DNA of 64,000 nucleotides, from the sequence record PQ415074.1; one strand, written 5' to 3'. Origin of the DNA: Pseudomonas phage Baskent_P6. The position numbers and the translations under genes are program-made. The notes under the pieces are model-generated. The model saw only the letters and a list, made by a program, of their open reading frames with translations, made no database searches and was not told the DNA's origin. Below, in pieces: positions 14,433-47,474 of this stretch. Positions within the stretch are counted from its first letter, which is position 1; every line of letters starts with the position of its first letter.

Positions 14433-14434
14433 CT

Positions 14435-21848: not shown

Positions 21849-23004
21849 CTACCGCGACGATTCCAACGACACGGCGGTAATCAGCGACTCGGCCTGGATC
21901 GGCCTGACCGCGATCAGCGAGGGAACCGCCAGGATCAGCGAGACGGTGCTGTTCGGCCTGCTGGTGCTGCATACCGACACCGCGGTGGCTTCCGACGAGG
22001 CAATTGACCGTCCGGGGCACCTCCTGGCGGACCAAGCACACGCCAGCGACGAGGTGACCGACCAGTTGCGCGCCAGGGTGCTGGTGGTTGAAACGGCTAC
22101 GGCGGGTGATCGCGTCACCGGCACGCTGCGCGTGCTGTATACCGATGGTGCAGTGGTCTCCGATGCCGTGATAGAGCGCGTTCGCAGCCTGGCCGTGGAC
22201 AACGCCCACCTGAGCGACGAGGCGCTGGGCACCCGCCACACCTTCACGCTGGTGGTCGATTCCGCGCGCATCAGCGACAGCACGGGCCAGGTCGCTGCCG
22301 CGCTGTTCGAAGACAGCGCCCTGGCGAGCGACGAGGCTTTCGGCAGGCTGCATGCTCGCGTGTTGCTGACGGACACCGCCGCGCTATCCGACGAGGTGCT
22401 GGACGCCCATCAGGCCGTCCAGGAACTGCTGGTTGATGGCGCCCGCGTCGCCGCCATGGTACTGGACCACCTGGCCGCACGTGACCTAGTGACGGACTTC
22501 GCTCTGGTCGATGGCGAACCCGTGGGCGGCGAGCAGGACGGCGGCCTGGCTTGGACGGCCAACGTCGATAGCTGGGCCATGAGCCGCTATGCCCCGTACA
22601 CCTTCAGCTCGCTGGCAGTGATCGACGGCAAGGTCTACGGTATCGCTGCGGATGGCGTCTATGCCCTGGAAGGCGGCAGCGACGCCGTGGCGGGCAGCAT
22701 CACCACCGGAAAGTTGGACCTGGGGCAGGGCGCACTAGTGCATCCGCATACCGCCTACTTGGAATACGACCTGGCCGCCGGCGGCCAGGTCACCATGGAC
22801 GTGACCACCACGCAAAGCGGCGCCGCCGCGACCTACAGCTACCCGCTAGAGAGCGAGCCCGCCGACGAACTGACTAACGGCCGGTTCAAGTTCGGCCGCG
22901 GCCTGCGCGGCAGGCACTTCGCCTTCACGCTGCGCTTGACGGGCCAGCGCGCCTACATCAACGACTTGAGCGTCGAATCGGCGCCGACCAACAGGAGAGT
23001 GTGA
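21841..23004 (+). CDS. Repeat protein: about 9 tandem units of roughly 20 aa with a conserved S-D-E-(A/V) core
   Basis: Units such as TAVASDEAIDRPGHLLADQAHASDEVTDQL..AVVSDAVIERV..AHLSDEALGT..ARISDSTGQV..ALASDEAFGR..AALSDEVLDA read in the translation; start overlaps upstream stop. Confidence 0.55.
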   Translation: MSDYRDDSNDTAVISDSAWIGLTAISEGTARISETVLFGLLVLHTDTAVASDEAIDRPGHLLADQAHASDEVTDQLRARVLVVETATAGDRVTGTLRVLYTDGAVVSDAVIERVRSLAVDNAHLSDEALGTRHTFTLVVDSARISDSTGQVAAALFEDSALASDEAFGRLHARVLLTDTAALSDEVLDAHQAVQELLVDGARVAAMVLDHLAARDLVTDFALVDGEPVGGEQDGGLAWTANVDSWAMSRYAPYTFSSLAVIDGKVYGIAADGVYALEGGSDAVAGSITTGKLDLGQGALVHPHTAYLEYDLAAGGQVTMDVTTTQSGAAATYSYPLESEPADELTNGRFKFGRGLRGRHFAFTLRLTGQRAYINDLSVESAPTNRRV

Positions 23005-24897
23005 ATGGGTATCGCACCGGATAGTATCCTTGGCGTAGCGGTGGACACCGTTACGGACAAGATGAACGATCTTGAGGCGCTGGGCAGCAAGTACAGCGCA
23101 GAACTGTCCGCCGCGCTGGCGAAGATCGGCGACATCACGGTGGCTGACGTGCCGGCACCGACGCGGCCGGATGCGCCTATCGCTTCGCCGCCGCCCGTCA
23201 ACCTGGGCGAGCAGCCGACCTACAACCCGTCTTCGCTGGTCAAGCCGGAAGCCCCTGGCGGCCTGAACATCGACGACCTGCTGGCCGACCTGGACGTGGG
23301 CGACATGGACGACCTGCCCGACGCGCCGACCATGATCCCGATCAACATCCCGGACGCGCCGAGCATGACGGCCATCCCGGTGCCGGAACGCCCGGACATC
23401 GACACCACGGTGGAGATTCCCGACGCGCCGCAGATCGCCATGCCGGACATGGAAGTGCTGGAACAGATCCGCCTGCCGGAATTCGTGTTCCCCGAGTTGC
23501 CCACGTTCGATGCCACGCCGCCGGACGCGAGCGGGATCACGGTGCCCAACGTCTTCATCAACTGGCTGGAACCGGAGTACCAGTCCGAGGTGCTGGACGA
23601 GTTGCAAGCGAAGATCAAGGAACTGATGGCGGGCGGCACCGGCCTGCCTGTACCCATCGAGCAGGCGCTGTTCGCCCGCTCCCGCGAGCGCGACAGCGGT
23701 GAAACCACCCGCGCCGTGCAGGAGGCGGTTGATACCTGGGCCGCCCGTAACTTCTCCATGCCGCCGGGGATGCTCGCCAGGCAGGTGGACGTGGTGCGCG
23801 AGCAGGGCCGGCTGAAAGCGGCCGAGCTGAACCGCGACATCCTAGTTCAGGCGGCCACCTGGGAAATCGAGAACCTGCGCTTCGCCGTGCAGCAGGGCCT
23901 GGCCCTCGAGCAGTTGACCGAGAACATGCACCAGAACATGGCGCAGCGCCTGTTCGAGGTCGCCCGCTTCCACGCGGAAAGCCAGATCAACGTGTTCAAC
24001 GCGCAGATCAGCCTGTTCAACGCGCAGAACGCGGCCTTCGAGACGCTGGCGCAGGTCTACCGCACCAAGCTGGATGCGGCTATCTCCAAGCTGACTGCCT
24101 ACAAGACCGCCGTGGAGGGCCAGGTGGCGCTGGGGCAGATCAACCAGCAGCGCGTCGAGGTGTTCAAGGCCAAGCTGGACGCCGTACAGTCGAGCGTCGA
24201 GGTCTACAAGGCGCTGATGCAGGGCGCTTCAGTGCGCGCCGAGACGATCAAGAACCAGTTCGATGCCTACCGCGCAGACGTGCAGGCGTATGCCGAGCAG
24301 ATCGGCGCCGAGAAGGTCAAGTTCGACGCCTACGAGGCCCGCGTCAAGGGCGAGTCGGCCAAGGCGGATGTGCTCGATGCGCAGGCCCGTGCCTACGCTT
24401 CAACCATCCAGGGGCTGGCGAACAAGGCCGATGTCAAGGTCAAGGGAGCGCAGATCAGGATGGAAGCGGCGCGCACCAAGGTGTCGAAGTTCTTGGCCGA
24501 CGTGGACGCCTACAAGGCCACCCTGCAGGCCAACCTGAGCGAGGTGCAGTACAACACGTCGGTGTTCCAGGCCCAAGTAGAAGCCTGGCGCGCAGCGGCC
24601 AGTGCCAACGTGGCCGACGCCGAAATGCAATCTCGCTTTGCCGACATGAACAGTCGGACCAACATCGCTTACGCGGAAATGCAGATCAGCGAGTACACGG
24701 CGAAGATGCAGAACGCTGTACAGCAGGCTCAGATCGCTCTGGAGGCGGCGAAGGCCCTGGGGCAATACACCGCTCAGCTCGCAGCCGGTGCCATGTCGGC
24801 GGCACATGTATCGGCCAGCATCAGCGGAACCGGAAGTGCCAGTACTCAGGAAAGCAAGAGCGAAAGCACGCAGACCAGTTACAACTACAGCTATTGA
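23005..24897 (+). CDS. Putative ejection/internal virion protein (coiled-coil rich, 630 aa)
   Basis: Long Ala/Gln/Glu-rich helical C-terminal half, Pro-rich N-terminal half; position before the other ejection-type proteins. Confidence 0.5.
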   Translation: MGIAPDSILGVAVDTVTDKMNDLEALGSKYSAELSAALAKIGDITVADVPAPTRPDAPIASPPPVNLGEQPTYNPSSLVKPEAPGGLNIDDLLADLDVGDMDDLPDAPTMIPINIPDAPSMTAIPVPERPDIDTTVEIPDAPQIAMPDMEVLEQIRLPEFVFPELPTFDATPPDASGITVPNVFINWLEPEYQSEVLDELQAKIKELMAGGTGLPVPIEQALFARSRERDSGETTRAVQEAVDTWAARNFSMPPGMLARQVDVVREQGRLKAAELNRDILVQAATWEIENLRFAVQQGLALEQLTENMHQNMAQRLFEVARFHAESQINVFNAQISLFNAQNAAFETLAQVYRTKLDAAISKLTAYKTAVEGQVALGQINQQRVEVFKAKLDAVQSSVEVYKALMQGASVRAETIKNQFDAYRADVQAYAEQIGAEKVKFDAYEARVKGESAKADVLDAQARAYASTIQGLANKADVKVKGAQIRMEAARTKVSKFLADVDAYKATLQANLSEVQYNTSVFQAQVEAWRAAASANVADAEMQSRFADMNSRTNIAYAEMQISEYTAKMQNAVQQAQIALEAAKALGQYTAQLAAGAMSAAHVSASISGTGSASTQESKSESTQTSYNYSY

Positions 24898-25253: not shown

Positions 25254-27428
25254 ATGTACGGGTTCAAGAAGGGCGCCAAGCCCAAGCAACGATTTGCAGA
25301 TGGTGGGCGGGTGCGTGGTCCAGGCACTGGCACCTCCGACGACATCGACACCGAGGTACCTGCGGGCAGCTACATCATGCCGGCCGACTCGACCGAGCAG
25401 ATTGGGGAAGCGGCGTTGCAGGGTATGGGGGCGCCGGTCCCGGTCAGCCTGAGTAACGGCGAGTACCAGATGCCTCCCGAGCAGGTTCACGCCGTTGGCG
25501 TGCAGGCGCTGGACGCTGTGAAGAATGCCACTCATGTGCCGGTAGCCCAGCAGGCAAAAGGGTTCTCTCCGCGTAAAAGGGGAGGGAATGGCGCCGAGAA
25601 GCCAGAATTGTTCTTCGCCGACGGCGGGGTTGTTGATGGAGAGCGCAAAAAGCAGACCCGTTTCGACATCACCAACACGCCCGCCGCCCAGCGTGCTGCT
25701 GGCGTTGTGCCGGAGGCATCGGCTCCCGTAGCCACCAGCGGCTACAGTGCAGACCCCACCATGGCAAGGGCGCAGGCCAATATCGATGCTGAACGGCAAG
25801 CAATGGCTGTGCATCGGCAGCGCACTGCTGATGCCGCGAATCTTCAGCCAGGAGTGGCGCCTGGCTACAGCGACAACCTCTATACCGCCAACGCCCAGGC
25901 ACGTTCGGATGCAGCCCGACAGCAACAGGCTGTGGCGCAGTCCGGTGCGCTGCCAGATGCGCCGTCGGCGCAAGGCTTCGCGCCCTCGCGACAAGGTAAT
26001 GACCCGGCCAGAGCTGCAAGGATGCAGGCTCAGTTTGATCAACCGGTAACGGGCCCTGATCGATCTAAAGCTGCTGGTTTCACTCCGCAATACCGCACCG
26101 AGGGACCAGGCTGGCGAACCGATTCGGTTCTTCGCGGGACGGGTGACGACGTAGCGCAGCAGTGGGCATCGGGTGAGTATGCCCGTGGCTTTGGAACTGG
26201 CGTGCGTGGGGCTCTTGCGGCGGTTCCCGCAGCGTTCGCTGATGCTGGTGAGGATGTCGGTCGACTGGCGGAACCGGTGGTCAACTTCGGTAAAGGGCTA
26301 TTCGGATGGAATGACACTCCGCCGGCGCTTCGTGGTCAGCAGGCAGCCCAGGGTGCAGCGGCGCCAAGTTCCAGTGCTGCGCTGGGGCGAGGCCAGGTGT
26401 TGCCGGCTGCTGGTGCGCCAACCGGGGCGCTGGAGTCGGCGGCGAATACTGGAGCCGCTATGCCAAGCGCCGGAGGCTCGGACCTGCCCAACAACGTGAC
26501 GCGAGTGGGTAACAGCTTCTCCGGTACAACAATCCGCCCAGGCTACACCGTTAACGGGGAGGCTCAAGCTGCCGGGTTCACCCCAGGTGGTCAGCGGAGT
26601 GCTCAAAACCAACGCGCAGTGGAGAACCTGCTGGCCCGAACGCCTGATGTTGGTATGGGGTTCAGGCCGAGTTCTGTCTCCCAGGTACCGCCGATGGCCC
26701 CGGACGCGTTGGCTCAGTACAACGCCGGTAACTCCGGCGCGCCTCGGGTAACCGTGGTTCCCGATAGCTCTCGGGCCGATAGCGTTCGCCAAGCCGCCTT
26801 GAATGCAGCCTCAACACCTTATCGCGGTTCGCCGAACGGGCAGTTAACTGCCCGCCAGATCGACAACCTGTTCCGGCTGCAGCAGAGCGATGACCGCAAT
26901 GCTACGTCCCTGGCGAGCATTCGAGCGAATAACGACACGGCCTTGGCGCGGGAGCAGGTGCAGCAGCAGGGCGCCAATCAGCGCGCGGCCCTACAGGAAA
27001 TGGGGCAGGGCGCGCGCTTCCTCGCCTCCAACGAACTCGATCGCCAGCGCCTGGCTGGTGAGCAAGAGGCCAGGGGCTTCCAAACCCGCGCCGCCCAGCG
27101 CATCGAGAAGCTGTACGAGCAGTACGACAAGGCTGCTCCCGAAGACCGAGCCGCGATCGCCGAACAGATTCGTGTGCTAGCCGGTAAGGACGCTCCGAAT
27201 CGCTTCACCGTGGTACCCGGCGGCCAGGAGTACGACCCACAGGCCATGCAACTTCTGACGCGCCCTGCACGAGTACTCAACAATCAGACCGGCCAATTTA
27301 TCGACCAGCAGGGCCAGCCGGCAGCGGCCGCCGGCGGAATCCCGCAGCCGAAGACTGCGGCCGAATACGAGGCCCTTCCCAAGGGCACCCAGTACATGAA
27401 AGACGGCCAACTGCGCGTCAAGGGCTAA
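25254..27428 (+). CDS. Putative ejection/internal virion protein (724 aa, Gly/Ala/Gln-rich, FADGG repeats)
   Basis: MYGFKKGAKPKQRFADGG ... ELFFADGGVVDG. Low-complexity composition; position directly before the giant ORF. Confidence 0.55.
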   Translation: MYGFKKGAKPKQRFADGGRVRGPGTGTSDDIDTEVPAGSYIMPADSTEQIGEAALQGMGAPVPVSLSNGEYQMPPEQVHAVGVQALDAVKNATHVPVAQQAKGFSPRKRGGNGAEKPELFFADGGVVDGERKKQTRFDITNTPAAQRAAGVVPEASAPVATSGYSADPTMARAQANIDAERQAMAVHRQRTADAANLQPGVAPGYSDNLYTANAQARSDAARQQQAVAQSGALPDAPSAQGFAPSRQGNDPARAARMQAQFDQPVTGPDRSKAAGFTPQYRTEGPGWRTDSVLRGTGDDVAQQWASGEYARGFGTGVRGALAAVPAAFADAGEDVGRLAEPVVNFGKGLFGWNDTPPALRGQQAAQGAAAPSSSAALGRGQVLPAAGAPTGALESAANTGAAMPSAGGSDLPNNVTRVGNSFSGTTIRPGYTVNGEAQAAGFTPGGQRSAQNQRAVENLLARTPDVGMGFRPSSVSQVPPMAPDALAQYNAGNSGAPRVTVVPDSSRADSVRQAALNAASTPYRGSPNGQLTARQIDNLFRLQQSDDRNATSLASIRANNDTALAREQVQQQGANQRAALQEMGQGARFLASNELDRQRLAGEQEARGFQTRAAQRIEKLYEQYDKAAPEDRAAIAEQIRVLAGKDAPNRFTVVPGGQEYDPQAMQLLTRPARVLNNQTGQFIDQQGQPAAAAGGIPQPKTAAEYEALPKGTQYMKDGQLRVKG

Positions 27429-27443: not shown

Positions 27444-30400
27444 ATGGCAGATACCTGGGGCGAGAACGACAAGATCGTGGATACCGCGGACTTCGGTGCG
27501 AACGACGAGGTGGTTGGCAAGGGGGAAGAGGGTCGCGGTGTTATAGGGCATGCGCGCGACCTCGGCCTGTCTGTGGCCAAGGGGGTGATTGGGGTTCCGG
27601 AAGCGGCTGTTGGCCTCGCTGATATCCCAACAGAGGGCCGCGTAGGTAAGTTCCTCGAGAACCAGGACGGCATGCTCGGCTTCCGGCCCCGGGAGGCGAA
27701 GGATTTCCTGAGTGATCTGCACACCGATCAGTACAAACAGCAACAGCAGGACTTTCAGGATGCTGATGGCGTCGTAGACAAGACGCTGCATGCTGTACAG
27801 AACCCGTCGATGGTCGTGAACACCGTAGCGGAGTCTTTGCCTTCCATGTTGGCGGGGGGCGCGGTCGGTCGTGGCGTTCGGGCGCTGGCTCCAGCGTTGG
27901 CACCTGTGGCAGCCGGCGCGGCTGGCGAAGGGGCGGTTATGGCTGGTCAGCAAGCAGAGCAGATCCGCCAAGAAACTGATGACGGCTTGCTCACTCCGGC
28001 GCAGTCGGGAGCTGCGGTGGCCACTGGTGTGTTGGGAAGTCTGTTTTCCCTTGCCGGCGGTAGCTTGGCCAAGAAACTGGGTATCGGTGATGCGGATACC
28101 CTCCTCGCTGGTGGTGCCAACCCAGGACAACTGGTCAGCGAGCTGGCGTCCATGCCGGCGAAGAGCATTCCGCGGAAGGTGATAGAGGGCGCAATCTCCG
28201 AGGGCTTCCTTGAGGAACTGCCACAGTCCGCATCTGAGCAGGTTCTGCAAAACCTGGCGCTGGGACGGGACTGGGCCAGCGGCCTGGATGAAGCGATGGT
28301 AATGGGAACGCTGGCCGGGATGGCCATGGGTGGGCCGGCGGCGGTTCTACATGGCGGTCAGCCGGCAGCGTCCCGTGGCCTGGCGGATGCGGACGCTACC
28401 TTCGAGAGTACCCCGGGCCTTGAGGGGCAGACCGAGACGACTGCGCCACTGGCACTCCCAGCTCCAGTGTATGAGGCTGGTTCTGACGGCCAGGTCCGGA
28501 CCACGGTCGACCAGAACTCCGCTACCCAGGCACAGCGTCAGCAAGAGGCTGAACGTCTGGACCGAATCCGTCGAGGTGAAGTCACCGATGTGACTCCGGT
28601 CCCGGCGGCCCCAAAGCGCTCCGAGCAGATGGGTCTGGACCCGGCTGTTGGGCCACTGTCTGGTGCTGCTGCGCAGGCCGTGGACAGTGGCGCAACTGAC
28701 CAGATGGTGCAACAAGCCGCGCTCCAGCAGGCAGCCGAGGAGGCGCAGAAGAGCGGCAGGAAAGGTGATCAGGTCAACCCGGAAACCGGTGAGATTACAG
28801 CGGAGCAGGGTGATCTGCTGGCATCCGATCCTGTCACCGATCTGCAGGGCCGCTTGGAATTTGTACGCCGGCAAGCCCGTGCCACCGGATGGGACGCGAA
28901 GAAAATCGCCGAGCGCGATCGCTTGCAGGAGGAACTGGACAAGCTCGCGCCAGCGCCGGATGCCGGCTACATGCAGCGCGTCGGTGAGCGCGTGAAGCGT
29001 ATCGAGGCCGCGCAGAGCCCCGATGAAATTGCCGCGATCCTCGCCGAGGATCAGCAGGATGAGCAGCGCCACCAGAACGCCGCTGGCCGGGTGGAGCTAG
29101 CCGCCCGCGCTCGCGGCTTCGCCCTGGACCAGGCGGCGCAGCAGCAAGCCCCGACGCCAATCGGCGTGCAGGACGACATCCAGCAGGCCCAAGGCAAGGC
29201 TGACGCGCAGCAGGCGCAAGCCGCACAACCGGCTGTATCGCTGGCGCCGGCAGCGGAATCCGTACCGGCAGCACCTGCGACCGAGGCGAAAGCGACCAAC
29301 CTGAAGGACGCCATTTCGAAGGTACGCCAGGCCAAACAGAAGCCCGAGCAGCCTGCGGCGCTGCAGGCCGTGCGTCGCGGAGAGGTGGGCGGAAAGCTGG
29401 GCAGTGGCGAAGTAGTGACCACCAGCAGCGGGCGGCAGACGACGCCTTTCCCGAAGGTCAGCGTGGACTCCAGCCGCAAGGCGACCAGCACCATCAAGGC
29501 CGTGGACCAGTGGCTGATGCAGAATGCCCTGGATGAAGCGCGCTCGCGCGGCGACGAGTTCAACGCGCGCCAGTTCGAGGCGAACCTGGCGAAGCCGCAG
29601 CGGGCCGATAAGGACGCTGCCGAGGAATACCTGTTCGGCCAACAGCCTGCTGTGCAGCCCCGCGTGCTGAAGCCACTGGCGCCGAAGTCTACCGCCACCG
29701 ACAACAGCGCAAGCTGGGTCATCCGAAACAAGGAAACCGGTGAGGTGATCGCGGAAACGTTCGACCGTAAGAAGGTTGACGCGCTCAACACCGAGAAATA
29801 CGAAGCGGTGCCGATCCAGCAGCACCTGGCGAGCCTGAACAAGCCCAAGGTGCCCAGCATCGAAGGCAAGGACATCGGCGAAGGGTGGGCGGAGTTCAGC
29901 AAGGAATCGGGCACCGTGGGTATCCCTCGCGCCGACATGCCGCAGATCAAGGCCGAGCACCGCGGCGCGATGGTGAACTTCCTGAGCGCTCGTGGCGTGC
30001 AGCATCAGGAAGAGACAGTTCCCGCAGATACCCTCAAACCGACGCAGGCTGAATTCAGCCGCGACAAGGTGGCGAAGGCCAAGGACTTCGAGGGTGGCAA
30101 CCGCTCCATCTTGGTTTCGCGCGAAGGCAACGTGTTGGATGGGCATCACCAGTGGATGGCCGCCCGCGACAACGGCGAAGAGGTGAGGGTGATTCGCCTG
30201 GATGCCCCCATCCGCGACCTGGTGAAACTGGCCCACGAGTTTCCCAGTTCCACCACCGATGCCAGCAGCGGGCAGGGTGCCACGGTTGACGCGAGACAGG
30301 TGAGGCCCGTGCCTGAGCCAGCCGCTCCTGATGTGCCGAAGAAGAGGCCGCGCGGCGTGCTGGCAAAGAGGTTCCAGGCTGAGGCCCAGGCCCGCGCCGA

Positions 30401-33400
30401 ATACTTCACCCCCGGCAACGTGGTGCGAGGTTACGGCGCCAACTACGACAGGGTTATCAGCTACAACCCGACCGAATCGGGAAGCTGGACCGTCACGGTG
30501 CGCAGTGTACGCAAGGAAGGCGACACCTGGGTGGATGTCCCGGGCGAGAGCGAGCGCACTCACATGACGGCGCCGGATGCGCGCGACATGAAGCGCGGCC
30601 CGGCCGGCCGTATCGCAACACAGGGGGCGCCAACCACCGATGAGTTCCCCTTGAAGGAAGCCGCCGCCAGCTACTCCGGTATCTCGAACAGCAGCAGCCA
30701 GCGAGCGAAGTCCGATGCGGATGAGTTCCAGACCTACATCGACGTGGCCCGCGACGCGGGCGCTGTCGTGGCGCGCACCGATGCTCAGCAGGCGGCCGTG
30801 GAGCAAGCCACACGAGAGTTGCGCGCCGATTACCTGGCCCAGTACCGACGCCTGATGAACGTGCGCGCCGGCACCTACAGCGGTTATGTTGTCGGGCGTT
30901 CTGGACTGAACAGCAAGCAGGCGGACAGGCGCAACAGCGCCTACGACCGCGCCATCGACACATTCGTGGCCTGGCAGAAGGCCAATCAGGATCGCGTGCG
31001 CCAGGCGGCCCTGGACGCCCGTACCGACGAGGAAAAGGCGGCAGATCGCCAGGCCGCCGAGCAGGCCCGCGCCGACAAGGCGCAGCGCAAGGAAGACGGG
31101 GACCGCAGCCTGATGCGCAGGATTCTGTCCTGGAAGAAGGGCAGCGAGCCGGTGGCGATCACCAAGGCCGCGCACCTTGCCGGGGTGAACTTCGGCAAGG
31201 ATGGCTACCCGACCAGCATTAAGTTGACGCCGACCGATGGCAGCGTGCTGACCAGCGACAAGTTCGACCTGGCGGCGCTGTTCCGTGAGCGCGGCATGAG
31301 CGTGCCGGAGTCGAAACGCCGCGTGCGTGAACTGGTCGATTTCGTGCGCGCCGAGGATGCAGCCCGGCCCCAGTCCGAACCGGCAGAGGCACCCAAGCCC
31401 GAGCCCGCGCAGCCCAGCGATTCTAAAACCCCGACGCTCGATGCGCATGTAGCCCTGATGCAGCGCGCGCGCAGTGGGGAGGCGACCGCCGACGAGTTCC
31501 GCCAGGCATTCGAGCGTACGCAGAACGCCCGCGACGCCCTGGTGGCCGAGCTGGGCACTATGAAGAAGGATGACCTGCTGAAGTCAGGCGGCTACAGCTT
31601 CTTCCACCGCTACCGCAACGAGAAGAAGGCAGCGATTGTCGATGCCCTGGTCGGTCGCGTGCTGGAGGAATTTGCGCTGGGCCGCAGCTACGGCCCGAGC
31701 AGCTACGTGATGTCGGCTGCCGGCCTAGAAGCGCACCGCCAGGCCAAGGCCAGCGCGCTGGCCGAGCTGGTGGCGAACACCACCGACGACGACATCAAGG
31801 CGCACGCCGCCGAGGTCGCCGAGGCGCAGCAGGAAGTCCAGGCTCGCCGGGAAGCGCAGCAGAAGGCTGTCGCCAACCCGCAGACCCTCGCCGAGTTCCG
31901 CCAGGCAGTGAGCTACAACATGGAGACGCACGGGGAGTCCCTGCGGGAGGCGTTCATGCGCCTGACGCCGGAACAGCGTATTCGCTACGACGAACTGGAG
32001 GCCGAGAGCACTAAGGCCCTGCGTGAGCAGGCCAAGGCACAGGCCAAGACCCGCGTAGCCAGCGCCGGGCAGACTACGGCCGGCGACATCATCGAGACGA
32101 AGCACACCAAGCACGGGCATGACCTTTTCGTGGTGCAACTGGCCGAGCGCGTCAGCCGCGAGGACTACGACACCCTGAACAATTCGGCGAAGCGGCTGGG
32201 CGGCAGCTACAGCAGTTACCGTGGGAATGGTGCTGTCCCCGGCTTCCAGTTCCGCACCCGCGAGGCGGCCGAAGCATTCCGCAAGCTGGTGACCGGCGAC
32301 ACCGCCGACGCGCAGGCCGTTGCAGAAGCGCGCCGCGACGCCTTCGAGGATGACCGCAACCAGAGCGCCGCCCAGCGGCTGCGCACCATGGCCCAGGCTC
32401 TCAACGAGCGGGCCGATGATTCCCTGAGCCGCGTACGCAAGCAGAACACCGATCGCCGTGCGCGGATGGCCGCCAGTGCCGAAGCCTCGGCGCGCGCCGA
32501 CAAGGCACTGGCCGCCACCATGAACAACCTGGCTGCCGCCATCGAAGGCGGCAAGGCGAAGTTCCTGGACACCGTGCGGCAGAAAGTGCAAGTGGAGTTC
32601 CTGGCGCGGGAACTGCGCAATGCAAAGGACGCGCAAATTCGAGCGAAGTACCCGACTTATGGCGAGCAGGAGAAACACCGTGGCGAGCCGGTGGACGCCG
32701 AGACGGTGGACTACTCCACATTCCCCAGTTACACCGCCATGCGCTCCGACTTGGCGAGCCTGGCGCGCCAGATGGCGGAAGTGGACGGCCTGAAGAAACT
32801 GGCCGCGCGCCTGGAGAAGGTCGCCGACGATGTGACCGAGGCCTACACCGGCTGGGCCAAGCAGAACCTTCTGTCCGTCAGCCGCTTCACCCGCGGTGAC
32901 CAGTTCGCCGACTTTAAGAGTCGCGAGGATGCTGAGCGTGCCATTCGCCGCTCCGGCCTCACCGGCAAGGCCATCGTGCTTCCGGTGAAACGCGGGCAGA
33001 ACCGCATCGTCATGGCCCCCAGCGAAGCCATGAAGCTGGGCCTCTGGCAGGGCGACGGCGACAAGCGCATCACGCTGTCCGGCGAGTTCGGGGGCGAACT
33101 GGTGCAGGCCCTGGGCCGGCGCAGTGGCAGCAAGATCACCGTTCCGTGGGCGCTGGAGAGTGCGCACGAAAAGCGCAAGCGCCTGGAGAGCATGGGCATC
33201 CTCACCGGCAGCGAGTACCGCTCTGCACTGCGCGAGTTCGTAGCGCTGCGCGAGGCGCCCGCCGAGCCGGATAAGATCAAGCAGATGGAACGGGCGATGA
33301 TCGGTCGTCGCAATGACGGCCTGGACTTCTTCCCAACCTCGGCCGCCGTCACCGAGGAAGCCATCGACGCCGCCGACATCCAGGGAGGCATGGACGTGCT

Positions 33401-36400
33401 GGAGCCTTCCGCCGGCATGGGCCATATGGCCGACGCGATCCGCGAGCAGACCGGCGTGGAGCCCGAAGTGGTGGAGCTTTCCGGAGAACGCCGCGAGTTG
33501 CTGGAGGCCAAGGGCTACAACCTGGTCGGATCCGACTTCATGGAGGTGTCCGGCAAGCAGTACGACCGTATCGTGATGAACCCGCCGTTCTCCAAGGGGC
33601 GCGACATCCAGCACGTACAGCACGCCTACAGCCTGCTGAAGCCCGGCGGCCGCCTGGTTGCCATCATGAGCGAAGGCGCCTTCTTCCAGAGCAACAAGGC
33701 CGCCGAGAACTTCCGTGCCTGGCTGGACGGCCTGGGTGCCACCAGTGAACGGCTGCCGGAAGGTTCGTTTATGGACCCAGCGCTATCCGTCAATACCGGC
33801 GTGAACGCGCGCATGGTGGTGATCGACAAGCCGGCAGCCGAAGAGTCGGCAGCGCCGCAGCCCGGCGAACAACCGCCTGTGCAGTACTCGTTCACCGGAC
33901 GCAATGCCGTCGGCGCCAACCTGCATGCCCTGAGCACCGCGCAGCAGCGCATCGCCATGGGCGAAAACGCCGAGGCCGTTCGTCGAGATACCGGCTGGCA
34001 CCGCGGCACTGATGGCAAGTGGCGCTTCGAAATCAGCGATCATCAGGCCAGCATCGCCGTGGCCGGTGAGACTGCTGGCGCCATCATCGATATGGCCCAC
34101 CTCAATGCCATCAACGACGAGCGTAGTCGACCGACTGTAGGCGATGTGCTCAGCCATCCTCAACTGTTCGCTGCATATCCTGACCTGCAGCGTATCCCGG
34201 TGGCAGTGATGCCAGAGGGCGTCACTGCGCTGGCTCGCCTACGCCGGTTCGCCACTGGTAACCAAGTTGAGGTTCAGGCGAACATGCCGCGCACCGAGGT
34301 TGCCTCGGCGATCCTGCACGAACTCCAGCATGCGATACAGATCCGGGAAGGTTTCGCCATGGGTGGCTCGGCCAGGGCTTTCGTCAGCAACTTCGACAAG
34401 ACTGGTGCGGCGACCTATCGTCGTTTGGCTGGAGAGGTGGAGGCGCGCAACACGCAGGCTCGTCTGAAAATGACGCCGCGCCTGCGCCGGGACATTGCAC
34501 CCGATGAGTCGGCGGACATCCCTGCAAGTCAGGTGCTGGTGTCGTTCAATGGCCGCGACATCGAGAATGGCCCGTTGCCGCAGAACCTGACGGGGCGTCC
34601 GCCGATGACCTCGCACAGCCTGGTGCGTGCTTTCGACCTGCAGTTCCCAGCCCTGGGCCAGGCTGTGCGCAAGATGCTGAAGCGCGGCAAGGAAGGACAA
34701 CGGGGCGGCTTGGTGGTGATCGACAGCGCCGACCCGTTGCGCATCGCGCACACCTACGCGCGGAAATCCGGTACCGCACTGAGCGATGCCGTTCAACTGT
34801 TTGAGGATGGCGAGCGCATCAATGGCTTCTACGATGCCAGATCAGGTCTAACTTTTCTGGTCGGCCCGAACCTGAATCCGGTAACCGCCCCGGCCGTGGT
34901 GCTTCACGAAATGGTTCACGGCCAGCAGCGACAGAATCTCGACCAGGCTGCCCACGCCATGCTGATGAATCGCGGCAACGTGCGGAGCGCCGAACTGCGC
35001 ACCTTCCTGGACCGTGTGGCCAGCCGCATGATCGAGTCCGGCGAGAGCCGCAACATGAAGGAGGCCGCTCCGTATATCGTGGAGCAGGCTGTTATTGAAG
35101 GGCGAGAGCAGGGATTCGCCGAGGCTGATAGCCGGTTCCTGTCCTGGGTAGACAGTGCGCTGGGCAAGCAGGTGGGTGACTTCCTGCGTAGGTTCCTGGC
35201 CAACATCCGTCAGTGGATGCTGCGCCACGGTCTGCCGGTTGGCCGCATCAGCGTGGACGATCTGGTGCGATATGCGATGGCTGGTGTGGAAAGCGCCGCC
35301 GAAGGCCGGGTACGGGGCGACGGCCTAGCCATGAGCCAGGACGACATGCGAAAGGCGCGCGTGCTGCAAGGCCCGCCGGTGGCCATCCTGGAGGGGAATG
35401 AAGCACCACAGGGCTTCGCTGCGGTTCGCGAGTGGGCGGCGAAGCTATTCGAGTCTCAAGGTGGCAAGGCAGTGAACCCGGACCTGGGCGACGTGGTGCT
35501 GGATATGCGCGCTGTGCGCGACTCGATGGCGCATGGCAAGGCCAACCCATACAAGTTCTCGGCGTTCGCGGCCGTCAAGGACGTGCTGGAGCGAGGTGTG
35601 GTGGTTCACCGCGCGGACTATGAGAAGGGGGAGAGTTTCTACGTGTCGGCGCCGGTGGTGATCGACGATAAGGATGACATCGTGACTGTGTTGGTGCGCC
35701 GCGATCCGAACATGCAGCGCATGTATCTGCATTCGGTGGCCACAAAAGAATATCTCCTGAACCGTCGAGTATCCGGTGCTGATGCCATGATGGCAGCGCA
35801 GCCTTCCGGCTCGTCCAGTTCAGGAGACGTAGCCAGTGTACTCCAGCGGCTGCTGACCGCAAGCCTGAATGAACCCGAAGGTCCGCAGTTCAGTCGCTCC
35901 GGTCTGCGCGAACTCACCAGCAAGGCTACCGCCGAACTGAACAAGACCTTCAGCGCTCCGGGAGGCCTGTCCTGGTGGCACAAGACCATCGGCACCATGT
36001 ACAACCTCGCAGAGCGTTCCCCGGCATTCAAGCCGGTCTTCGAGTCGGCGCAAGGATTTATCGATGACGTGAGCTATTACGCCAGCGATGCGGCTGATCT
36101 GGCGCCGAAACTGCTGCCGAAGCTGGAAACCTGGCGCGACATTGCAAAGTCCCCGGTGGGCGCTGAGGACAACAAGGCGGTGGCCAAGCCGGTATTCGAG
36201 GGCACGCTGATGTGGGCGCGCGACGTGGACGGCAAGCCGGTGCGCGTCGATTCGCTGGCTGAGCGCGCCATGCGTCTGACGGCCGACGAGAAGGCGGACA
36301 TCCTGCTGAAGCAGGGCAAGATTCCCGAGGGACTGCTGCGCGCCTGGCGCGGCCTGAGCCCCGAGCAGTTCGCGAAGATGATCGACAGCCGCTACGAGTC

Positions 36401-38792
36401 GCAGATGCTCAAGGCAGGCATCGTCTGGACCGACGCTGAGCTGCGCGACATGTGGAAGCTCAACGATGCGCAGGTCGCGCTGTACCGCGAGTTCCGCGCC
36501 GCCACCGACCGTAGCCTGGACACCATGGCCCGCGCCGACATGCTGCGCTTCGGCGGCGAGGATGTGAAGGAACTGCGCGACCAGGTGATGGACGCGGCCG
36601 ATGCGCAGGAGGGGGCCGCGATACTGCGCGACCACCTGGCGCAGATGGCTGATGCATGGCCGGAACGCGCCACGAACCTGCTGAACCTGGCACACGGCAT
36701 GACGGATCGCGCCGAGAAGGTCGCCCAGTTGCAGGGCGAGGGCTATGCACCGCTGTCGCGCTTCGGCAAGTACACCGTGGATGTGGTGGACGCGAACGGC
36801 GAGCGCCAGTATTTCAGCCTGTTCGAGACCAAGCGCGAGGCGAACCTGATGGCCGAGCAGATGCGCGGCGCCTTCCCTGGCGCCACCGTCAGTCAGGGCA
36901 CGCTGTCCGAGGAAAGCTACAAGCTATTCGCCGGCATCACCCCGGAAACCCTGGAACTGTTCGGCAACGCCCTGGGCTTCGACTCGGAGGGCGACAGCGC
37001 CCGCGACCAGGCGTTCCAGGAATACCTGCGCCTGACCAAGACCAACCGTTCCGCGATGCGCCGGTTGATCCACCGCAAGGGCATCGCCGGCTACAGCGAG
37101 GACGTGGGCCGCGTGTTGGCATCGTTCATCTACTCCAACTCCCGGCAGACCGCCGCCGGCCTGCACATGGGCAACCTTTCCGAGGCTGTGAACGGCATCC
37201 CACAGGCGCAGGGCGAACTGAAGGACGCCGCGGTACGGCTGGCCGACTACATCAAGAACCCGCAAGAGGAGGGGCAGGCGGTGCGCGGACTGCTGTTTGC
37301 GCAGTACCTCGGCGGGTCCGTCGCGTCAGCCTTCGTCAACATGACCCAGCCGGTCCAAGTGACTTTTCCCTGGTTGAGTCAGTATTGCGGGGTGAAGCGC
37401 GCTGCGGCGGAACTGGGGCGGGCAGCACGACAGATGGCGCAGCGCTCCTATCAGTTCGAACCGGACCTGGCCCGGGCATTAAAGCGCGCAGAGGATGATG
37501 GGGTGGTGTCCCCGCAGGAGGTCCACCAGTTGATGGCGCAGGCCCGCGGCAGCGGCTCGCTGCGCGCCGGGGACGGGACGCGCTTGGGTGATGCTCGAGC
37601 ACTTGCGTCCAACAGCGTGGCGCGCCTGTCGATGGCCTGGGGCAAGTTGTTCGGCGCCGCAGAGCAGATCAACCGCCGCATGACTTACATCGCGTCGTAT
37701 CGCATCGCCAAAGCGCAGAACATGGCCAATCCTGACGAGTTCGCACGCCGGGCCGTGCGCGAGACGCAGTTCGTATACTCCAAGGCCAGCAAGATGCGCT
37801 GGGGGCGTGGTGCCGTCGGCGGCACCTTGATGACCTTCAAGACGTACAGCGTGGCCTATCTTGAGCTGATGCATCGCTTGTGGAATCAGGGTGAGCCTGG
37901 TTCGCAGGAGCGCAAGGACGGTCGGAAGGCTGCTGCCCTGATGATCGGCATGCTGCTGCTCGTCGGCGGCGCCGGTGGCTTGCCGTTCGCCGAAGACGCC
38001 GAAGACCTGATCGACGGTGCGGCGCAACTCATGGGCTACAACTTCTCTACCGCGAAGGCCAAACAGGAGTTTCTGGAAGGTCTGTTTGGTCGGGTGCTTG
38101 CCGACTTCATTGATCGCGGGGTGTCCGGACTGCCTGGTGCTCCGCTCGATGCCTCAGGCCGGCTGGGCATGGGGAACCTGATTCCTGGAACCCGGCTACT
38201 CCAGCCCGCCCCCGCGAATATTCGCGATGTGCTTGAAATAGCTGGCCCCATGGGGGACTTCGCGAATCGCATCCTTGAGGGCGGGAAAAAGATCGCCAGT
38301 GGCGACATCGGTAGCGGGTTGCTGGAAATATCCCCGGGGGCGGTACGAAACGCTGCCAAGGGTGTGGATATGCTCGCCACTGGGATGTACCGAGACACGA
38401 AGGGCTACAAGGTCTTGGATACCAACACGCTTGAGGCCGCGATGAAGATGATCGGTTTCCAGCCTGCCAGTGTGGCGACCATTCAGGAAGCCAACATGCT
38501 CAGTCAGAAGGCGAAGGCCTTCTACAACCTGAAGGCGCAAGAAATCCGCAGTATGTGGGCGGCCGGCATCTTCGAGAAAGACCAGGGCAAGGTTGAGCGC
38601 GCGCGGCAAGCAATAGCCGACTGGAATCGGCGCAACCCTGACCAGCCAATGGCCATCCGAGTGCCAGACATCATGCGACGAGTCCGCGAAATGTCGCTAT
38701 CGAAGGACGAACGGATAGCGAAGACCGCACCGAAAGCGATGCGGCAGCAGATGCGAGAGGATCTGGAGCGCACCCGCGCAGCGCTGGACTGA
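27444..38792 (+). CDS. Giant polyvalent virion protein (3782 aa) with ParB-like nuclease, N6-adenine methyltransferase, two HExxH zincin-like motifs and a PLxRFG-type motif
   Basis: Single uninterrupted ORF. ParB-like domain at about nt 29900..30240 (IPRADMPQIKAEHRG...ILVSREGNVLDGHHQWMAARDNGEEVRVIRLD). Gamma-class N6-adenine MTase at about 33320..33840 (FFPTSAAV; motif I VLEPSAGMGHM; motif IV NPPF at 33587..33598). HELQH at 34316..34330 and HEMVH at 34904..34918. YAPLSRFGKY at 36750..36767. Confidence 0.85.
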   Translation: MADTWGENDKIVDTADFGANDEVVGKGEEGRGVIGHARDLGLSVAKGVIGVPEAAVGLADIPTEGRVGKFLENQDGMLGFRPREAKDFLSDLHTDQYKQQQQDFQDADGVVDKTLHAVQNPSMVVNTVAESLPSMLAGGAVGRGVRALAPALAPVAAGAAGEGAVMAGQQAEQIRQETDDGLLTPAQSGAAVATGVLGSLFSLAGGSLAKKLGIGDADTLLAGGANPGQLVSELASMPAKSIPRKVIEGAISEGFLEELPQSASEQVLQNLALGRDWASGLDEAMVMGTLAGMAMGGPAAVLHGGQPAASRGLADADATFESTPGLEGQTETTAPLALPAPVYEAGSDGQVRTTVDQNSATQAQRQQEAERLDRIRRGEVTDVTPVPAAPKRSEQMGLDPAVGPLSGAAAQAVDSGATDQMVQQAALQQAAEEAQKSGRKGDQVNPETGEITAEQGDLLASDPVTDLQGRLEFVRRQARATGWDAKKIAERDRLQEELDKLAPAPDAGYMQRVGERVKRIEAAQSPDEIAAILAEDQQDEQRHQNAAGRVELAARARGFALDQAAQQQAPTPIGVQDDIQQAQGKADAQQAQAAQPAVSLAPAAESVPAAPATEAKATNLKDAISKVRQAKQKPEQPAALQAVRRGEVGGKLGSGEVVTTSSGRQTTPFPKVSVDSSRKATSTIKAVDQWLMQNALDEARSRGDEFNARQFEANLAKPQRADKDAAEEYLFGQQPAVQPRVLKPLAPKSTATDNSASWVIRNKETGEVIAETFDRKKVDALNTEKYEAVPIQQHLASLNKPKVPSIEGKDIGEGWAEFSKESGTVGIPRADMPQIKAEHRGAMVNFLSARGVQHQEETVPADTLKPTQAEFSRDKVAKAKDFEGGNRSILVSREGNVLDGHHQWMAARDNGEEVRVIRLDAPIRDLVKLAHEFPSSTTDASSGQGATVDARQVRPVPEPAAPDVPKKRPRGVLAKRFQAEAQARAEYFTPGNVVRGYGANYDRVISYNPTESGSWTVTVRSVRKEGDTWVDVPGESERTHMTAPDARDMKRGPAGRIATQGAPTTDEFPLKEAAASYSGISNSSSQRAKSDADEFQTYIDVARDAGAVVARTDAQQAAVEQATRELRADYLAQYRRLMNVRAGTYSGYVVGRSGLNSKQADRRNSAYDRAIDTFVAWQKANQDRVRQAALDARTDEEKAADRQAAEQARADKAQRKEDGDRSLMRRILSWKKGSEPVAITKAAHLAGVNFGKDGYPTSIKLTPTDGSVLTSDKFDLAALFRERGMSVPESKRRVRELVDFVRAEDAARPQSEPAEAPKPEPAQPSDSKTPTLDAHVALMQRARSGEATADEFRQAFERTQNARDALVAELGTMKKDDLLKSGGYSFFHRYRNEKKAAIVDALVGRVLEEFALGRSYGPSSYVMSAAGLEAHRQAKASALAELVANTTDDDIKAHAAEVAEAQQEVQARREAQQKAVANPQTLAEFRQAVSYNMETHGESLREAFMRLTPEQRIRYDELEAESTKALREQAKAQAKTRVASAGQTTAGDIIETKHTKHGHDLFVVQLAERVSREDYDTLNNSAKRLGGSYSSYRGNGAVPGFQFRTREAAEAFRKLVTGDTADAQAVAEARRDAFEDDRNQSAAQRLRTMAQALNERADDSLSRVRKQNTDRRARMAASAEASARADKALAATMNNLAAAIEGGKAKFLDTVRQKVQVEFLARELRNAKDAQIRAKYPTYGEQEKHRGEPVDAETVDYSTFPSYTAMRSDLASLARQMAEVDGLKKLAARLEKVADDVTEAYTGWAKQNLLSVSRFTRGDQFADFKSREDAERAIRRSGLTGKAIVLPVKRGQNRIVMAPSEAMKLGLWQGDGDKRITLSGEFGGELVQALGRRSGSKITVPWALESAHEKRKRLESMGILTGSEYRSALREFVALREAPAEPDKIKQMERAMIGRRNDGLDFFPTSAAVTEEAIDAADIQGGMDVLEPSAGMGHMADAIREQTGVEPEVVELSGERRELLEAKGYNLVGSDFMEVSGKQYDRIVMNPPFSKGRDIQHVQHAYSLLKPGGRLVAIMSEGAFFQSNKAAENFRAWLDGLGATSERLPEGSFMDPALSVNTGVNARMVVIDKPAAEESAAPQPGEQPPVQYSFTGRNAVGANLHALSTAQQRIAMGENAEAVRRDTGWHRGTDGKWRFEISDHQASIAVAGETAGAIIDMAHLNAINDERSRPTVGDVLSHPQLFAAYPDLQRIPVAVMPEGVTALARLRRFATGNQVEVQANMPRTEVASAILHELQHAIQIREGFAMGGSARAFVSNFDKTGAATYRRLAGEVEARNTQARLKMTPRLRRDIAPDESADIPASQVLVSFNGRDIENGPLPQNLTGRPPMTSHSLVRAFDLQFPALGQAVRKMLKRGKEGQRGGLVVIDSADPLRIAHTYARKSGTALSDAVQLFEDGERINGFYDARSGLTFLVGPNLNPVTAPAVVLHEMVHGQQRQNLDQAAHAMLMNRGNVRSAELRTFLDRVASRMIESGESRNMKEAAPYIVEQAVIEGREQGFAEADSRFLSWVDSALGKQVGDFLRRFLANIRQWMLRHGLPVGRISVDDLVRYAMAGVESAAEGRVRGDGLAMSQDDMRKARVLQGPPVAILEGNEAPQGFAAVREWAAKLFESQGGKAVNPDLGDVVLDMRAVRDSMAHGKANPYKFSAFAAVKDVLERGVVVHRADYEKGESFYVSAPVVIDDKDDIVTVLVRRDPNMQRMYLHSVATKEYLLNRRVSGADAMMAAQPSGSSSSGDVASVLQRLLTASLNEPEGPQFSRSGLRELTSKATAELNKTFSAPGGLSWWHKTIGTMYNLAERSPAFKPVFESAQGFIDDVSYYASDAADLAPKLLPKLETWRDIAKSPVGAEDNKAVAKPVFEGTLMWARDVDGKPVRVDSLAERAMRLTADEKADILLKQGKIPEGLLRAWRGLSPEQFAKMIDSRYESQMLKAGIVWTDAELRDMWKLNDAQVALYREFRAATDRSLDTMARADMLRFGGEDVKELRDQVMDAADAQEGAAILRDHLAQMADAWPERATNLLNLAHGMTDRAEKVAQLQGEGYAPLSRFGKYTVDVVDANGERQYFSLFETKREANLMAEQMRGAFPGATVSQGTLSEESYKLFAGITPETLELFGNALGFDSEGDSARDQAFQEYLRLTKTNRSAMRRLIHRKGIAGYSEDVGRVLASFIYSNSRQTAAGLHMGNLSEAVNGIPQAQGELKDAAVRLADYIKNPQEEGQAVRGLLFAQYLGGSVASAFVNMTQPVQVTFPWLSQYCGVKRAAAELGRAARQMAQRSYQFEPDLARALKRAEDDGVVSPQEVHQLMAQARGSGSLRAGDGTRLGDARALASNSVARLSMAWGKLFGAAEQINRRMTYIASYRIAKAQNMANPDEFARRAVRETQFVYSKASKMRWGRGAVGGTLMTFKTYSVAYLELMHRLWNQGEPGSQERKDGRKAAALMIGMLLLVGGAGGLPFAEDAEDLIDGAAQLMGYNFSTAKAKQEFLEGLFGRVLADFIDRGVSGLPGAPLDASGRLGMGNLIPGTRLLQPAPANIRDVLEIAGPMGDFANRILEGGKKIASGDIGSGLLEISPGAVRNAAKGVDMLATGMYRDTKGYKVLDTNTLEAAMKMIGFQPASVATIQEANMLSQKAKAFYNLKAQEIRSMWAAGIFEKDQGKVERARQAIADWNRRNPDQPMAIRVPDIMRRVREMSLSKDERIAKTAPKAMRQQMREDLERTRAALD

Positions 38793-38848: not shown

Positions 38849-38873
38849 GCCGGGGCGTGATGCCCCGGCCTTT
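38849..38873 (+). terminator. GC hairpin GCCGGGGC-gtgat-GCCCCGGC followed by CTTT, between the giant ORF and the holin; possible terminator/attenuator
   Basis: Perfect 8-bp inverted repeat read directly; preceded by the motif aaCCCCCTGTAAGGatt (38793..38809). Confidence 0.45.
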
Positions 38874-43962: not shown

Positions 43963-44196
43963 TCACTCCGGGGCTCCCGCTTCGTTTGCCGGCGCCGGCG
44001 GCGTCCAGGTTCCGTTGCAGTACTGGTCGATTTCAACCTCTGCCCAGCGAGTGGCGCGGCCAAACTTGCGCCCTTTGGGGAAGTCCCCTTTCTTCATATG
44101 GTCGTAGATGAACGTGGTACCCATCCCCGTTCTCAACTTGACCATATTCAAGTCGATGAAGCGGGGGACGTCTTGGTGCTGCTGGGTGTTGCGCAT
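43963..44196 (-). CDS. alpA: AlpA-family phage transcriptional regulator/excisionase
   Basis: RFIDLNMVKLRTGMGTTFIYDHMKKGDFPKGRKFGRATRWAEVEIDQY matches the AlpA HTH pattern; convergent with int. Confidence 0.75.
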   Translation of the reverse strand: MRNTQQHQDVPRFIDLNMVKLRTGMGTTFIYDHMKKGDFPKGRKFGRATRWAEVEIDQYCNGTWTPPAPANEAGAPE

Positions 44197-44570
44197 AGAG
44201 ATACCTCCCGGGTCCATTGATACGGACCGGGTGAAAGTTGGGTTTCGAGGTAACGGTTAGTCAGTACCGGCCCGGCCGGAAACGGCGTTCCCGGCAGGAT
44301 GCCCAGGGCGTCGGTGGCGCGTTGGACGATGTTGAGCGCCACTTGCAGCGCCGCCGCGTCGTCTTGCATTCGCATGAGCGCGGTCATCTTGGGCCGGTGC
44401 TCGGCACACACTCTGTCGCGAAGCTGACCGGCGGCGCGGCGAACAGCGTCGGCCGTGCCGTGGTGCTGGAGCACCAGGGCCATGACCAGTACCACGTCGA
44501 CGCTGTGCATTTGCATCGTTGTGGTCCGCAGGAGCCAGCGGGGAAGGGCGATGCCTGGTTTCTGCTTCAT
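44148..44570 (-). CDS. Hypothetical protein; overlaps the alpA start by about 49 nt, so boundaries uncertain
   Basis: ORF only. Confidence 0.25.
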   Translation of the reverse strand: MKQKPGIALPRWLLRTTTMQMHSVDVVLVMALVLQHHGTADAVRRAAGQLRDRVCAEHRPKMTALMRMQDDAAALQVALNIVQRATDALGILPGTPFPAGPVLTNRYLETQLSPGPYQWTREVSLCATPSSTKTSPASST

Positions 44571-44681
44571 CCGAAGCACCCCGTCTGCCAGGCCGCCAGC
44601 GTGCGGAGGATCGGGAATATCTCCACCAGCCCTACCACGGCCAGGGCGAGGGCAGCGATGATGCCGAGGGCGGTCAGCGCT

Positions 44682-46676: not shown

Positions 46677-46773
46677 GGTGGTGTCTCCGGTTGCTCCGGC
46701 GCCGGCGGCCGGCAGCGGAAGCATTTGCACAGGCCTATCCGTTGGCCCGTGGTGCGGCAGATGGTGGGGCGGT

Positions 46774-47467: not shown

Positions 47468-47474
47468 GGTTGGC

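Follow-up and report, generated by a model that had tools for sequence, protein, structure and literature searches.

The 64,000-nucleotide stretch of Pseudomonas phage Baskent_P6 that we analysed (PQ415074.1; hereafter the window) contains one uninterrupted open reading frame (ORF) that runs from ATG to stop at 27444..38792 (+) and encodes a protein of 3782 amino acids (aa) and 410.7 kDa. We judge, with a probability of roughly 75%, that this giant protein is a packaged and ejected polyvalent protein, and thus an internal virion protein, of the F116-group podophages; our confidence in any specific enzymatic role that its sequence predicts is much lower. Comparison with its relatives suggests that the protein consists of a conserved delivery chassis, formed by its two ends, that flanks exchangeable cargo, in parallel to gp50 of phage N4.

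Presence in the virion, which the initial annotation of this DNA had proposed, is documented for the orthologue in phage H66. H66 gp60 is 97.5% identical in amino acid sequence over aa 28-3782 and is recorded in RefSeq as a ‘PLxRFG domain-containing protein’ with the note ‘verified by mass spectrometry as part of the virion’; the near-absence of cysteine from the giant protein agrees with packaging. H66 gp60, which corresponds to p59 plus p60 of F116 and to phiC725A_54, is the same protein in the same place before the lysis genes, and differs from the giant protein in the first ~27-35 residues. The position of its gene is syntenic with the internal-virion-protein genes of T7 and the ejection-protein genes of P22 (PMC4819975). 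The ejection-gene position that had been called P22-like therefore stands as synteny, although the phage is F116-like and not P22-like. The giant ORF closes the structural operon, in which it follows the terminase, portal, capsid and tail genes and precedes the lysis genes.

Because ~2.7% stops per random codon would be expected at 64% GC, we infer that 3782 consecutive stop-free codons are not a product of chance. The same ORF is unbroken in at least 30 phage records, and its DNA is 100% identical in a dozen Pseudomonas aeruginosa phage records (vB_Pae_CF24a, BR313a and others; MK5110xx; 61,772 bp). At 11,349 nucleotides (nt), the gene occupies 18.4% of these 61,772-bp genomes, in line with the single 11.3-kb ORF and the share of about 18% that were noted originally. 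Nucleotide identity of the ORF is 96.8% to H66 and 93.8% to F116, and the protein matches phrog_11358 over its full length. Because of this identity to records of the F116 group, we assign the phage, from sequence, to the F116-like temperate podophages of the genus Hollowayvirus, with P. aeruginosa as host.

We set the borders of the modules by natural recombination, by mapping onto the protein the homologues that an exhaustive HMMER search and two database searches had returned. Pfam scans covered the whole protein and ten tiles of it, with matches inspected to E 10. The resulting map is as follows.

27531..28343 (+), aa 30-300: N-terminal cap, Gly/Ala-rich, with the phrog_2206 match
28344..29855 (+), aa 301-804: Ala/Gln/Pro-rich low-complexity region
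29856..30263 (+), aa 805-940: ParB/Srx-fold module
30306..31583 (+), aa 955-1082 and aa 1083-1380: two unnamed modules, the former a small beta-rich domain
31584..33140 (+), aa 1381-1899: methyltransferase-associated region with no named domain
33141..33833 (+), aa 1900-2130: class I S-adenosylmethionine (SAM) methyltransferase core with the gamma-class N6-adenine motif order
33864..34595 (+), aa 2141-2384: module M1, LPD23 (aa 2148-2204) followed by HELQH and GEVEARN
34596..35318 (+), aa 2385-2625: module M2, with HEMVH
35391..35864 (+), aa 2650-2807: LPD3 (Pfam match aa 2660-2761)
35889..38759 (+), aa 2816-3772: C-terminal chassis
nt 36741-38744, aa 3100-3767: PLxRFG ‘tail-700’ domain, NCBIfam NF032893

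The motifs within these modules, checked on the translation, lie where the initial annotation had placed them, to within 1 nt.

nt 30138, aa 899: DGHH
nt 33327, aa 1962: FFPT (motif X)
nt 33402, aa 1987: EPSAG (motif I)
nt 33579, aa 2046: NPPF (motif IV)
nt 34317, aa 2292: HELQH
nt 34905, aa 2488: HEMVH
nt 36750, aa 3103: PLSRFG
nt 37929, aa 3496: AAALMIG

The low-complexity region at aa 301-804 is common only to a near-identical representative, is replaced in LKA5/Epa33 and is probably a flexible linker. Further low-complexity linkers occur at several module borders, most clearly at aa 1052-1097 and 2127-2155. The two unnamed modules recur separately from each other in relatives, and the region at aa 1381-1899 co-occurs with the methyltransferase core. 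Some 2500 residues had been left unnamed as possible effectors; ~1,230 of them turn out to be conserved chassis (the N-terminal cap and the C-terminal module), and unnamed modules do remain among the others.

The two ends are the parts that relatives share irrespective of cargo. The N-terminal cap, which has hydrophobic segments at aa 190-208 and aa 284-302, is present in 66 of 150 family representatives and is placed at the N terminus in 64 of these 66. Residues 98-490 match the profile of N4-like virion RNA polymerases (phrog_2206) at positions 187-602 (E 1.7e-12), a profile onto which N4 gp50 maps 1:1. Direct comparison of the cap with N4 gp50 by BLAST and hhalign gave weak similarity in the same register as the phrog_2206 match. 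A hidden Markov model (HMM) built from the cap found no match to N4 gp50. The kinship between the two rests on phrog_2206; by this profile, the cap appears akin to the N-terminal part of N4-like virion RNA polymerases.

The last ~670 aa of the C-terminal module (~960 aa) match NF032893 over profile positions 2-681 of 681, at 784.2 bits against a cut-off of 100 (E 1e-235), so that the PLxRFG motif reported earlier belongs to a full-length domain. The exhaustive HMMER search found the module in 4081 clusters at 50% identity, 1132 of them with E <1e-30. It lies within 2 residues of the end of the protein in all 160 relatives examined, in carriers of 1095-5677 aa, and it has its own hydrophobic segment (aa 3497-3515, nt 37932-37988).

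Amino acid composition provides a separate line of evidence. The giant protein has 1 cysteine in 3782 residues, whereas ~33 would be expected from the mean of 0.87% in the other late genes of the window (Poisson P about 2e-13). The median number of cysteines in the 150 family representatives is 0, 0-1 cysteines were counted in the final ~1200 residues of eight divergent phage homologues, and N4 gp50 (3500 aa), T7 gp16 and T7 gp15 have none. This near-total absence of cysteine therefore offers independent, composition-based support for an unfolded passage through the periplasm.

Three ORFs directly upstream on the same strand, 21841-23004, 23005-24897 and 25254-27428 (+), encode proteins of 387, 630 and 724 aa that are also free of cysteine. 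They belong to PHROGs of unknown function, and terminase, portal and capsid have 5-7 cysteines each. The 724-aa product is near T7 gp15 in size (747 aa, 0 cysteines). These three proteins may be further ejected or internal virion proteins; H66 does not list their counterparts as confirmed by mass spectrometry.

Between the two ends, a methyltransferase, a ParB/Srx fold, two HExxH modules and LPD3 are combined in one 3782-aa ORF, the kind of combination by which polyvalent proteins are recognised. The tiled and whole-protein scans named LPD23, LPD3 and MTS above their Pfam cut-offs, and the first two of these substantiate the assignment to polyvalent proteins that had been made from motifs.

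The methyltransferase core has its motifs in the gamma-class order X-I-IV (FFPT, EPSAGMG and NPPF), as originally described. In the tiled Pfam scan MTS scored 26.1 bits against a cut-off of 23, with N6_Mtase (14.8 bits, cut-off 20.4) and Eco57I (17.8 bits, cut-off 25.3) below theirs. The core matches the ‘DNA methyltransferase’ family phrog_6263 with E 2.5e-33, PDB entry 1dus weakly, and the methyltransferase core of P1 DarB at 23% identity (E 0.001). Neither a helicase nor an LPD36 domain was found in the whole-protein or tiled Pfam scans, and with no helicase after the methyltransferase ‘DarB-like’ is a loose label. The ‘two genes’ p59 and p60 of F116 (NC_006552) result from one extra T (CATAT-GG vs CATATTGG) in methyltransferase motif I, at about 7380-7400 of the F116 locus and equivalent to about 33411 in the window. 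The extra T may be an error of sequencing; otherwise it is a mutation by which the methyltransferase is inactivated. Since this 1-nt insertion lies inside motif I, we rejected the idea that p59/p60 are naturally divided where two modules meet.

The ParB/Srx-fold module, with the signature LKPTQAEFS...RSILVS.DG.VLDGHHQW, is the most conserved of all modules, typically at 51-79% identity in more than 110 proteins, with a few down to 42%. Its alpha+beta fold was recovered by a structure-based test, the sole ParB test that was positive. No match to ParBc or ddrB-ParB was found to E 10 in the tile aa 760-1210 or in the whole protein, a profile of the module alignment found no match in the PDB, and hhalign detected no similarity to P1 DdrB (P 0.32). 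The ParB-like nuclease of the initial annotation thus survives as a ParB/Srx fold, without the usual arginine and without a matching ParB Pfam model. In fold, the module is as near to SbnI/SerK, which are ATP-dependent kinases, and to sulfiredoxin as to ParB nucleases. From these structural comparisons we propose that the ~135-aa DGHHQW module could be a new enzyme family, and that it could act as an injected nucleotide-dependent phosphotransferase or NTPase and not as a DNase.

M1 and M2 follow the methyltransferase. LPD23 in M1 is matched with E 4e-21 (69.7-74.9 bits against a cut-off of 27). The HExxH motif and a downstream glutamate are conserved in both M1 and M2, and H, E and H are invariant in M1. 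The DUF6782 metallopeptidase model reached 18.2 bits against a cut-off of 27 in the tiled scan, and no Pfam peptidase model exceeded its cut-off in the whole-protein or tiled scans. M2 aligns weakly with the HExxH ‘C1’/MPTase domain of N4 gp50. The two peptidase-like motifs noticed at the outset are therefore present, conserved in homologues and accompanied by zincin-type fold matches, with weak peptidase scores; M1 is a putative gluzincin-type metallopeptidase, again with weak scores. A Foldseek search of the PDB with a model of M1-M2-LPD3 returned no match at E <=0.001 (the best was anthrax lethal factor, E 0.21), and PDB profile searches with M1 and with LPD3 returned nothing meaningful. 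LPD3 itself scores 47.8-50.1 bits against a cut-off of 27 and has an alpha+beta fold, possibly RelE/BECR-like or NTF2-like, with invariant S, H, K, R, H, K and E.

Relatives differ widely in the modules that they carry between the ends. Among the 150 representatives, the ParB/Srx module occurs in 31, the methyltransferase unit in 17, M1 in 7, M2 in 10 and LPD3 in 11. The version in P. aeruginosa phage vB_PaeM_USP_18 (4947 aa, cysteine-free; 2441-17284 of its locus) retains the N-terminal cap, ParB/Srx, M1, M2 and the C-terminal modules, and in it a superfamily 2 (SF2) helicase and an ADP-ribosyltransferase (ART-PolyVal) replace the methyltransferase and LPD3. Judged by sequence, this looks like cargo swapping between close relatives. 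In USP_18, lysis genes directly follow the giant gene. The same holds for Parlo, SopranoGao, Skulduggery and PEp14, podophages of ~60 kb that infect Serratia, Klebsiella, Pseudomonas fluorescens and Erwinia, in which endolysin/holin genes come directly after a giant gene for 3695-4914 aa. The order of giant gene and lysis cassette is therefore conserved far outside the F116 group. Relatives are labelled ‘DNA methyltransferase’, ‘putative DNA methylase’ or ‘DarB-like antirestriction’, and the phiC725A protein ‘putative internal virion polymerase’.

Metagenomic data contain relatives in other settings. On a 16.5-kb Logan contig from SRR12113422, a 2095-aa relative (6930-13217) combines LPD39, ParB/Srx, M2 and the C-terminal module (26% identity). 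Genes for an integrase, an O-like replication initiator and a primase/helicase immediately precede it and HicAB follows after a short distance, and no structural genes are present on that contig. The locus may represent a satellite-like element, or else a prophage with an unusual gene arrangement. The neighbourhoods of three metagenomic relatives show little, as the contigs are short.

The protein and its class are already known: identical sequences have been deposited, the orthologue is in the literature and polyvalent proteins have been defined. Hardies et al. (2016) assigned both H66 gp60 and the C-terminal domain of N4 gp50 to an extended T7 IVP-D (gp16) family, described a central SAM-methyltransferase site in H66 gp60 and compared this protein explicitly with N4 gp50; the homology of the family (E 8e-19) was obtained through joined intermediate families (PMC4819975). 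The phiC725A paper repeats this view (PMC5217972). Iyer et al. (2017) defined ‘polyvalent proteins’, LPD domains and the DarB-type pair of methyltransferase and helicase, and described an HExxH MPTase domain with N4 gp50 among its examples (PMC5512222). The initial reading is supported, yet it is essentially the published view (PMC4819975, PMC5217972, PMC5512222). Published accounts of H66 gp60 cover the methyltransferase site and the IVP-D-like C terminus; they do not contain the ParB/Srx module, HExxH, LPD23/LPD3, the N-terminal cap or the avoidance of cysteine. What is new here is the fold-level support for an unannotated ParB/Srx family, the chassis-plus-cargo statistics, the N-terminal link to N4 virion RNA polymerase, the cysteine-avoidance signature and the finding that a 1-nt frameshift accounts for the F116 ‘split gene’.

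Among characterized systems, N4 gp50 is encapsidated and ejected, as the giant protein would be, and resembles it in being giant and cysteine-free, in having a related N terminus and an HExxH domain after the cargo, and in a large helical C-terminal domain and a beads-on-a-string layout with low-complexity linkers. A 2026 paper describes gp50 as a beads-on-a-string ejection protein whose N-terminal domain anchors at the inner membrane, whose ‘C1’ domain has HExxH and whose ‘C2’ domain, helical and of 110 kDa, has no structural relatives (PMC13434306). The cargo differs: gp50 carries RNA polymerase, whereas the protein studied here carries the methyltransferase, ParB/Srx, zincin-like modules and LPD3. 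The gene for T7 gp16 likewise stands last among the large genes of the structural operon, and gp16 is an ejected, cysteine-free, helical protein of the internal core. However, gp16 (1318 aa) has a lytic transglycosylase at its N terminus, whereas the giant protein is three times larger and carries enzymes predicted to be directed at the cytoplasm. No SLT or lysozyme domain was found in the whole-protein or tiled Pfam scans, and a muralytic domain is not universal in the IVP-D family.

P1 DarB, which like DdrB is an antirestriction protein packaged in the head, also has a gamma-type N6-adenine methyltransferase core but pairs it with an SF2 helicase, and it is shorter than the ‘DarB-like’ PHROG stretch (positions 3957-4644 of 4647) that the C-terminal module matches. 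The ParB/Srx module is not the DdrB-type ParB of Iyer et al. (PMC5512222). A 2026 preprint reports gp47 of Stx phage phi24B, a 2811-aa polyvalent protein, in virions by proteomics, with ejection proposed. Like phi24B gp47 and other polyvalent proteins, the giant protein is large and multi-domain, has LPD domains and a putative metallopeptidase and is encoded with virion genes, whereas the domain set of gp47 (LPD5/LPD1/LPD38/MuF-C) is a different one.

We hypothesize that a few copies of the protein would be packed in the capsid by means of the chassis ends. At infection, each copy, largely unfolded, would pass one module after another along the portal-tail channel and cross the periplasm, where avoidance of cysteine would prevent trapping by disulfides. 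The N-terminal cap and the C-terminal hydrophobic segments may anchor at the inner membrane or help to span it, as has been proposed for the N terminus of N4 gp50 and for T7 gp16. Once in the cytoplasm, the central cargo would be active ahead of all phage gene expression: the methyltransferase would most likely modify the entering DNA against restriction-type defences, the ParB/Srx-fold, presumably nucleotide-dependent enzyme and LPD3 may act there as further cargo, and one or two of the zincin-like modules may cleave the chain to release its functional parts.

Several results weigh against the reading of a packaged, ejected polyvalent protein with this cargo. We compared the C-terminal module with T7 gp16 and the N4 C-terminal domain by HMM-sequence, profile-sequence and profile-profile methods (the last with 41 T7-like proteins) and repeated the comparisons with eight divergent homologues. 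Similarity to T7 gp16 was marginal in hmmsearch (E 0.19); hhalign gave P 0.0065 and 0.18, and 0.0019-0.0045 with the eight divergent phage homologues added. The best alignments pair the region of the hydrophobic segment (aa ~3435-3600) with gp16 residues 1075-1243. The link to T7 gp16 (IVP-D) was thus not reproduced at a significant level; it rests on PMC4819975 and needs intermediate families. The same profile comparisons detected no similarity between the C-terminal module and the C-terminal domain of N4 gp50. A DNA substrate of the methyltransferase is no more than putative, because the core is small, no target-recognition domain was recognised beside it and it scores best with MTS models of the rRNA/protein type. 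In the ParB/Srx module, DGHHQW stands in place of the DGxHR / GxxR arginine, with Q invariant in 25 sequences, and the best fold matches include the kinases SbnI and SerK as well as nucleases; other invariant arginines (R40 and R98, alignment numbering) might substitute for that of the signature.

The main rival to a packaged, ejected polyvalent protein, and one that is compatible with it, holds that the protein is essentially a structural part of the ejectosome, a conduit and membrane anchor of the T7 gp16 or N4 gp50 type, whose enzymes would help to assemble the virion, to process the protein itself or to penetrate the envelope and would not counter host defences. Conservation is indeed best, and universal, in the two ends and not in the cargo, both ends have hydrophobic segments, the gene is syntenic with internal-virion-protein genes, and the authors of the phi24B study propose that gp47 serves as a conduit and has a peptidase directed at peptidoglycan. 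However, it is hard to see what a SAM methyltransferase and a ParB/Srx module would do in a conduit through the periplasm, the Pfam scans contain no lysozyme or transglycosylase domain, and close relatives swap their cargo for a helicase and an ADP-ribosyltransferase. Modules of these two types have cytoplasmic targets. We regard an essentially structural role as possible, at well below even odds. It is distinctly improbable that the protein is a late-expressed DNA methyltransferase that modifies progeny DNA before packaging and is present in virions incidentally. Several relatives are annotated as ‘DNA methyltransferase’ or ‘putative DNA methylase’ and the methyltransferase motifs are intact, but of the 3782 residues the core takes up about 230, a methyltransferase is entirely absent from relatives that share the ends, and the avoidance of cysteine and the conserved chassis point to translocation. 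F116 is, moreover, viable despite the frameshift in its methyltransferase, unless the latter is a sequencing error.

The phiC725A annotation raises a further alternative, an N4 gp50-like virion RNA polymerase, for which the N-terminal similarity to the N4-like profile, a similar size and the published homology of the C-terminal domains could be cited. The polymerase part of phrog_2206 is nevertheless unmatched, as the match is confined to positions 187-602; the PDB search yielded no match to N4 polymerase structures; and BLAST against N4 gp50 aligns the N-terminal and HExxH stretches only. With no polymerase match in phrog_2206, the PDB or BLAST against gp50, this alternative is effectively refuted, and we assign it a negligible chance.

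Returning to the packaged, ejected polyvalent protein, its cysteine-free N-terminal cap and ~960-aa C-terminal module may, by sequence relationship, represent a general, cargo-independent injection chassis of N4 virion RNA polymerase, T7 gp16 and thousands of PLxRFG giants. That both ideas hold jointly, with the DGHHQW ParB/Srx module as an undescribed enzyme family and the ends as a general injection chassis, is a proposal we make tentatively and consider rather doubtful as a whole. Giant virion-borne polyvalent proteins are common, as the number of clusters with the C-terminal module illustrates, and almost none has been studied by experiment. Because F116-like phages grow on P. aeruginosa PAO1, a genetically tractable strain, the protein offers a practical model of how 411 kDa of protein is packed and threaded through a phage tail, of how injected enzymes act in the first seconds of infection and of whether conserved ends could deliver foreign cargo. 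Each of the annotation labels ‘DNA methyltransferase’, ‘DarB-like antirestriction’ and ‘internal virion polymerase’ is correct only in part.

Other features of the structural operon and of the region 3' of the giant gene are listed here.

starts 4193: large terminase
starts 5486: portal
starts 9094: major head protein
38849..38869 (+): GC-rich hairpin with an 8-bp stem and a 5-nt loop, read directly from the sequence 3' of the stop codon

Several tail genes and genes of unknown function lie between the major head protein and the giant ORF. The hairpin sits where H66 has an annotated terminator, before the lysis genes, which we identified from the H66 annotation; the consensus terminator scan did not list it. 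Across the giant gene, a scan for promoters and terminators found sites no more numerous than in shuffled sequence. The 64-kb window contains neither a circularly repeated genome nor a tRNA. Two long antisense ORFs lie within the giant gene, 29097-31448 (783 aa) and 31725-33623 (632 aa), both (-); we rejected them as genes and take them to be high-GC artefacts, which are typical of DNA with 64-66% GC. The early region (window 44000-64000) is mosaic, and any deposited F116-like genome covers only 58-72% of it. Relatives annotate an SNF2-family helicase under part of the early-region matches, and D14I and LKA5 have a C-5 cytosine methylase annotated under such matches, encoded apart from the virion methyltransferase.

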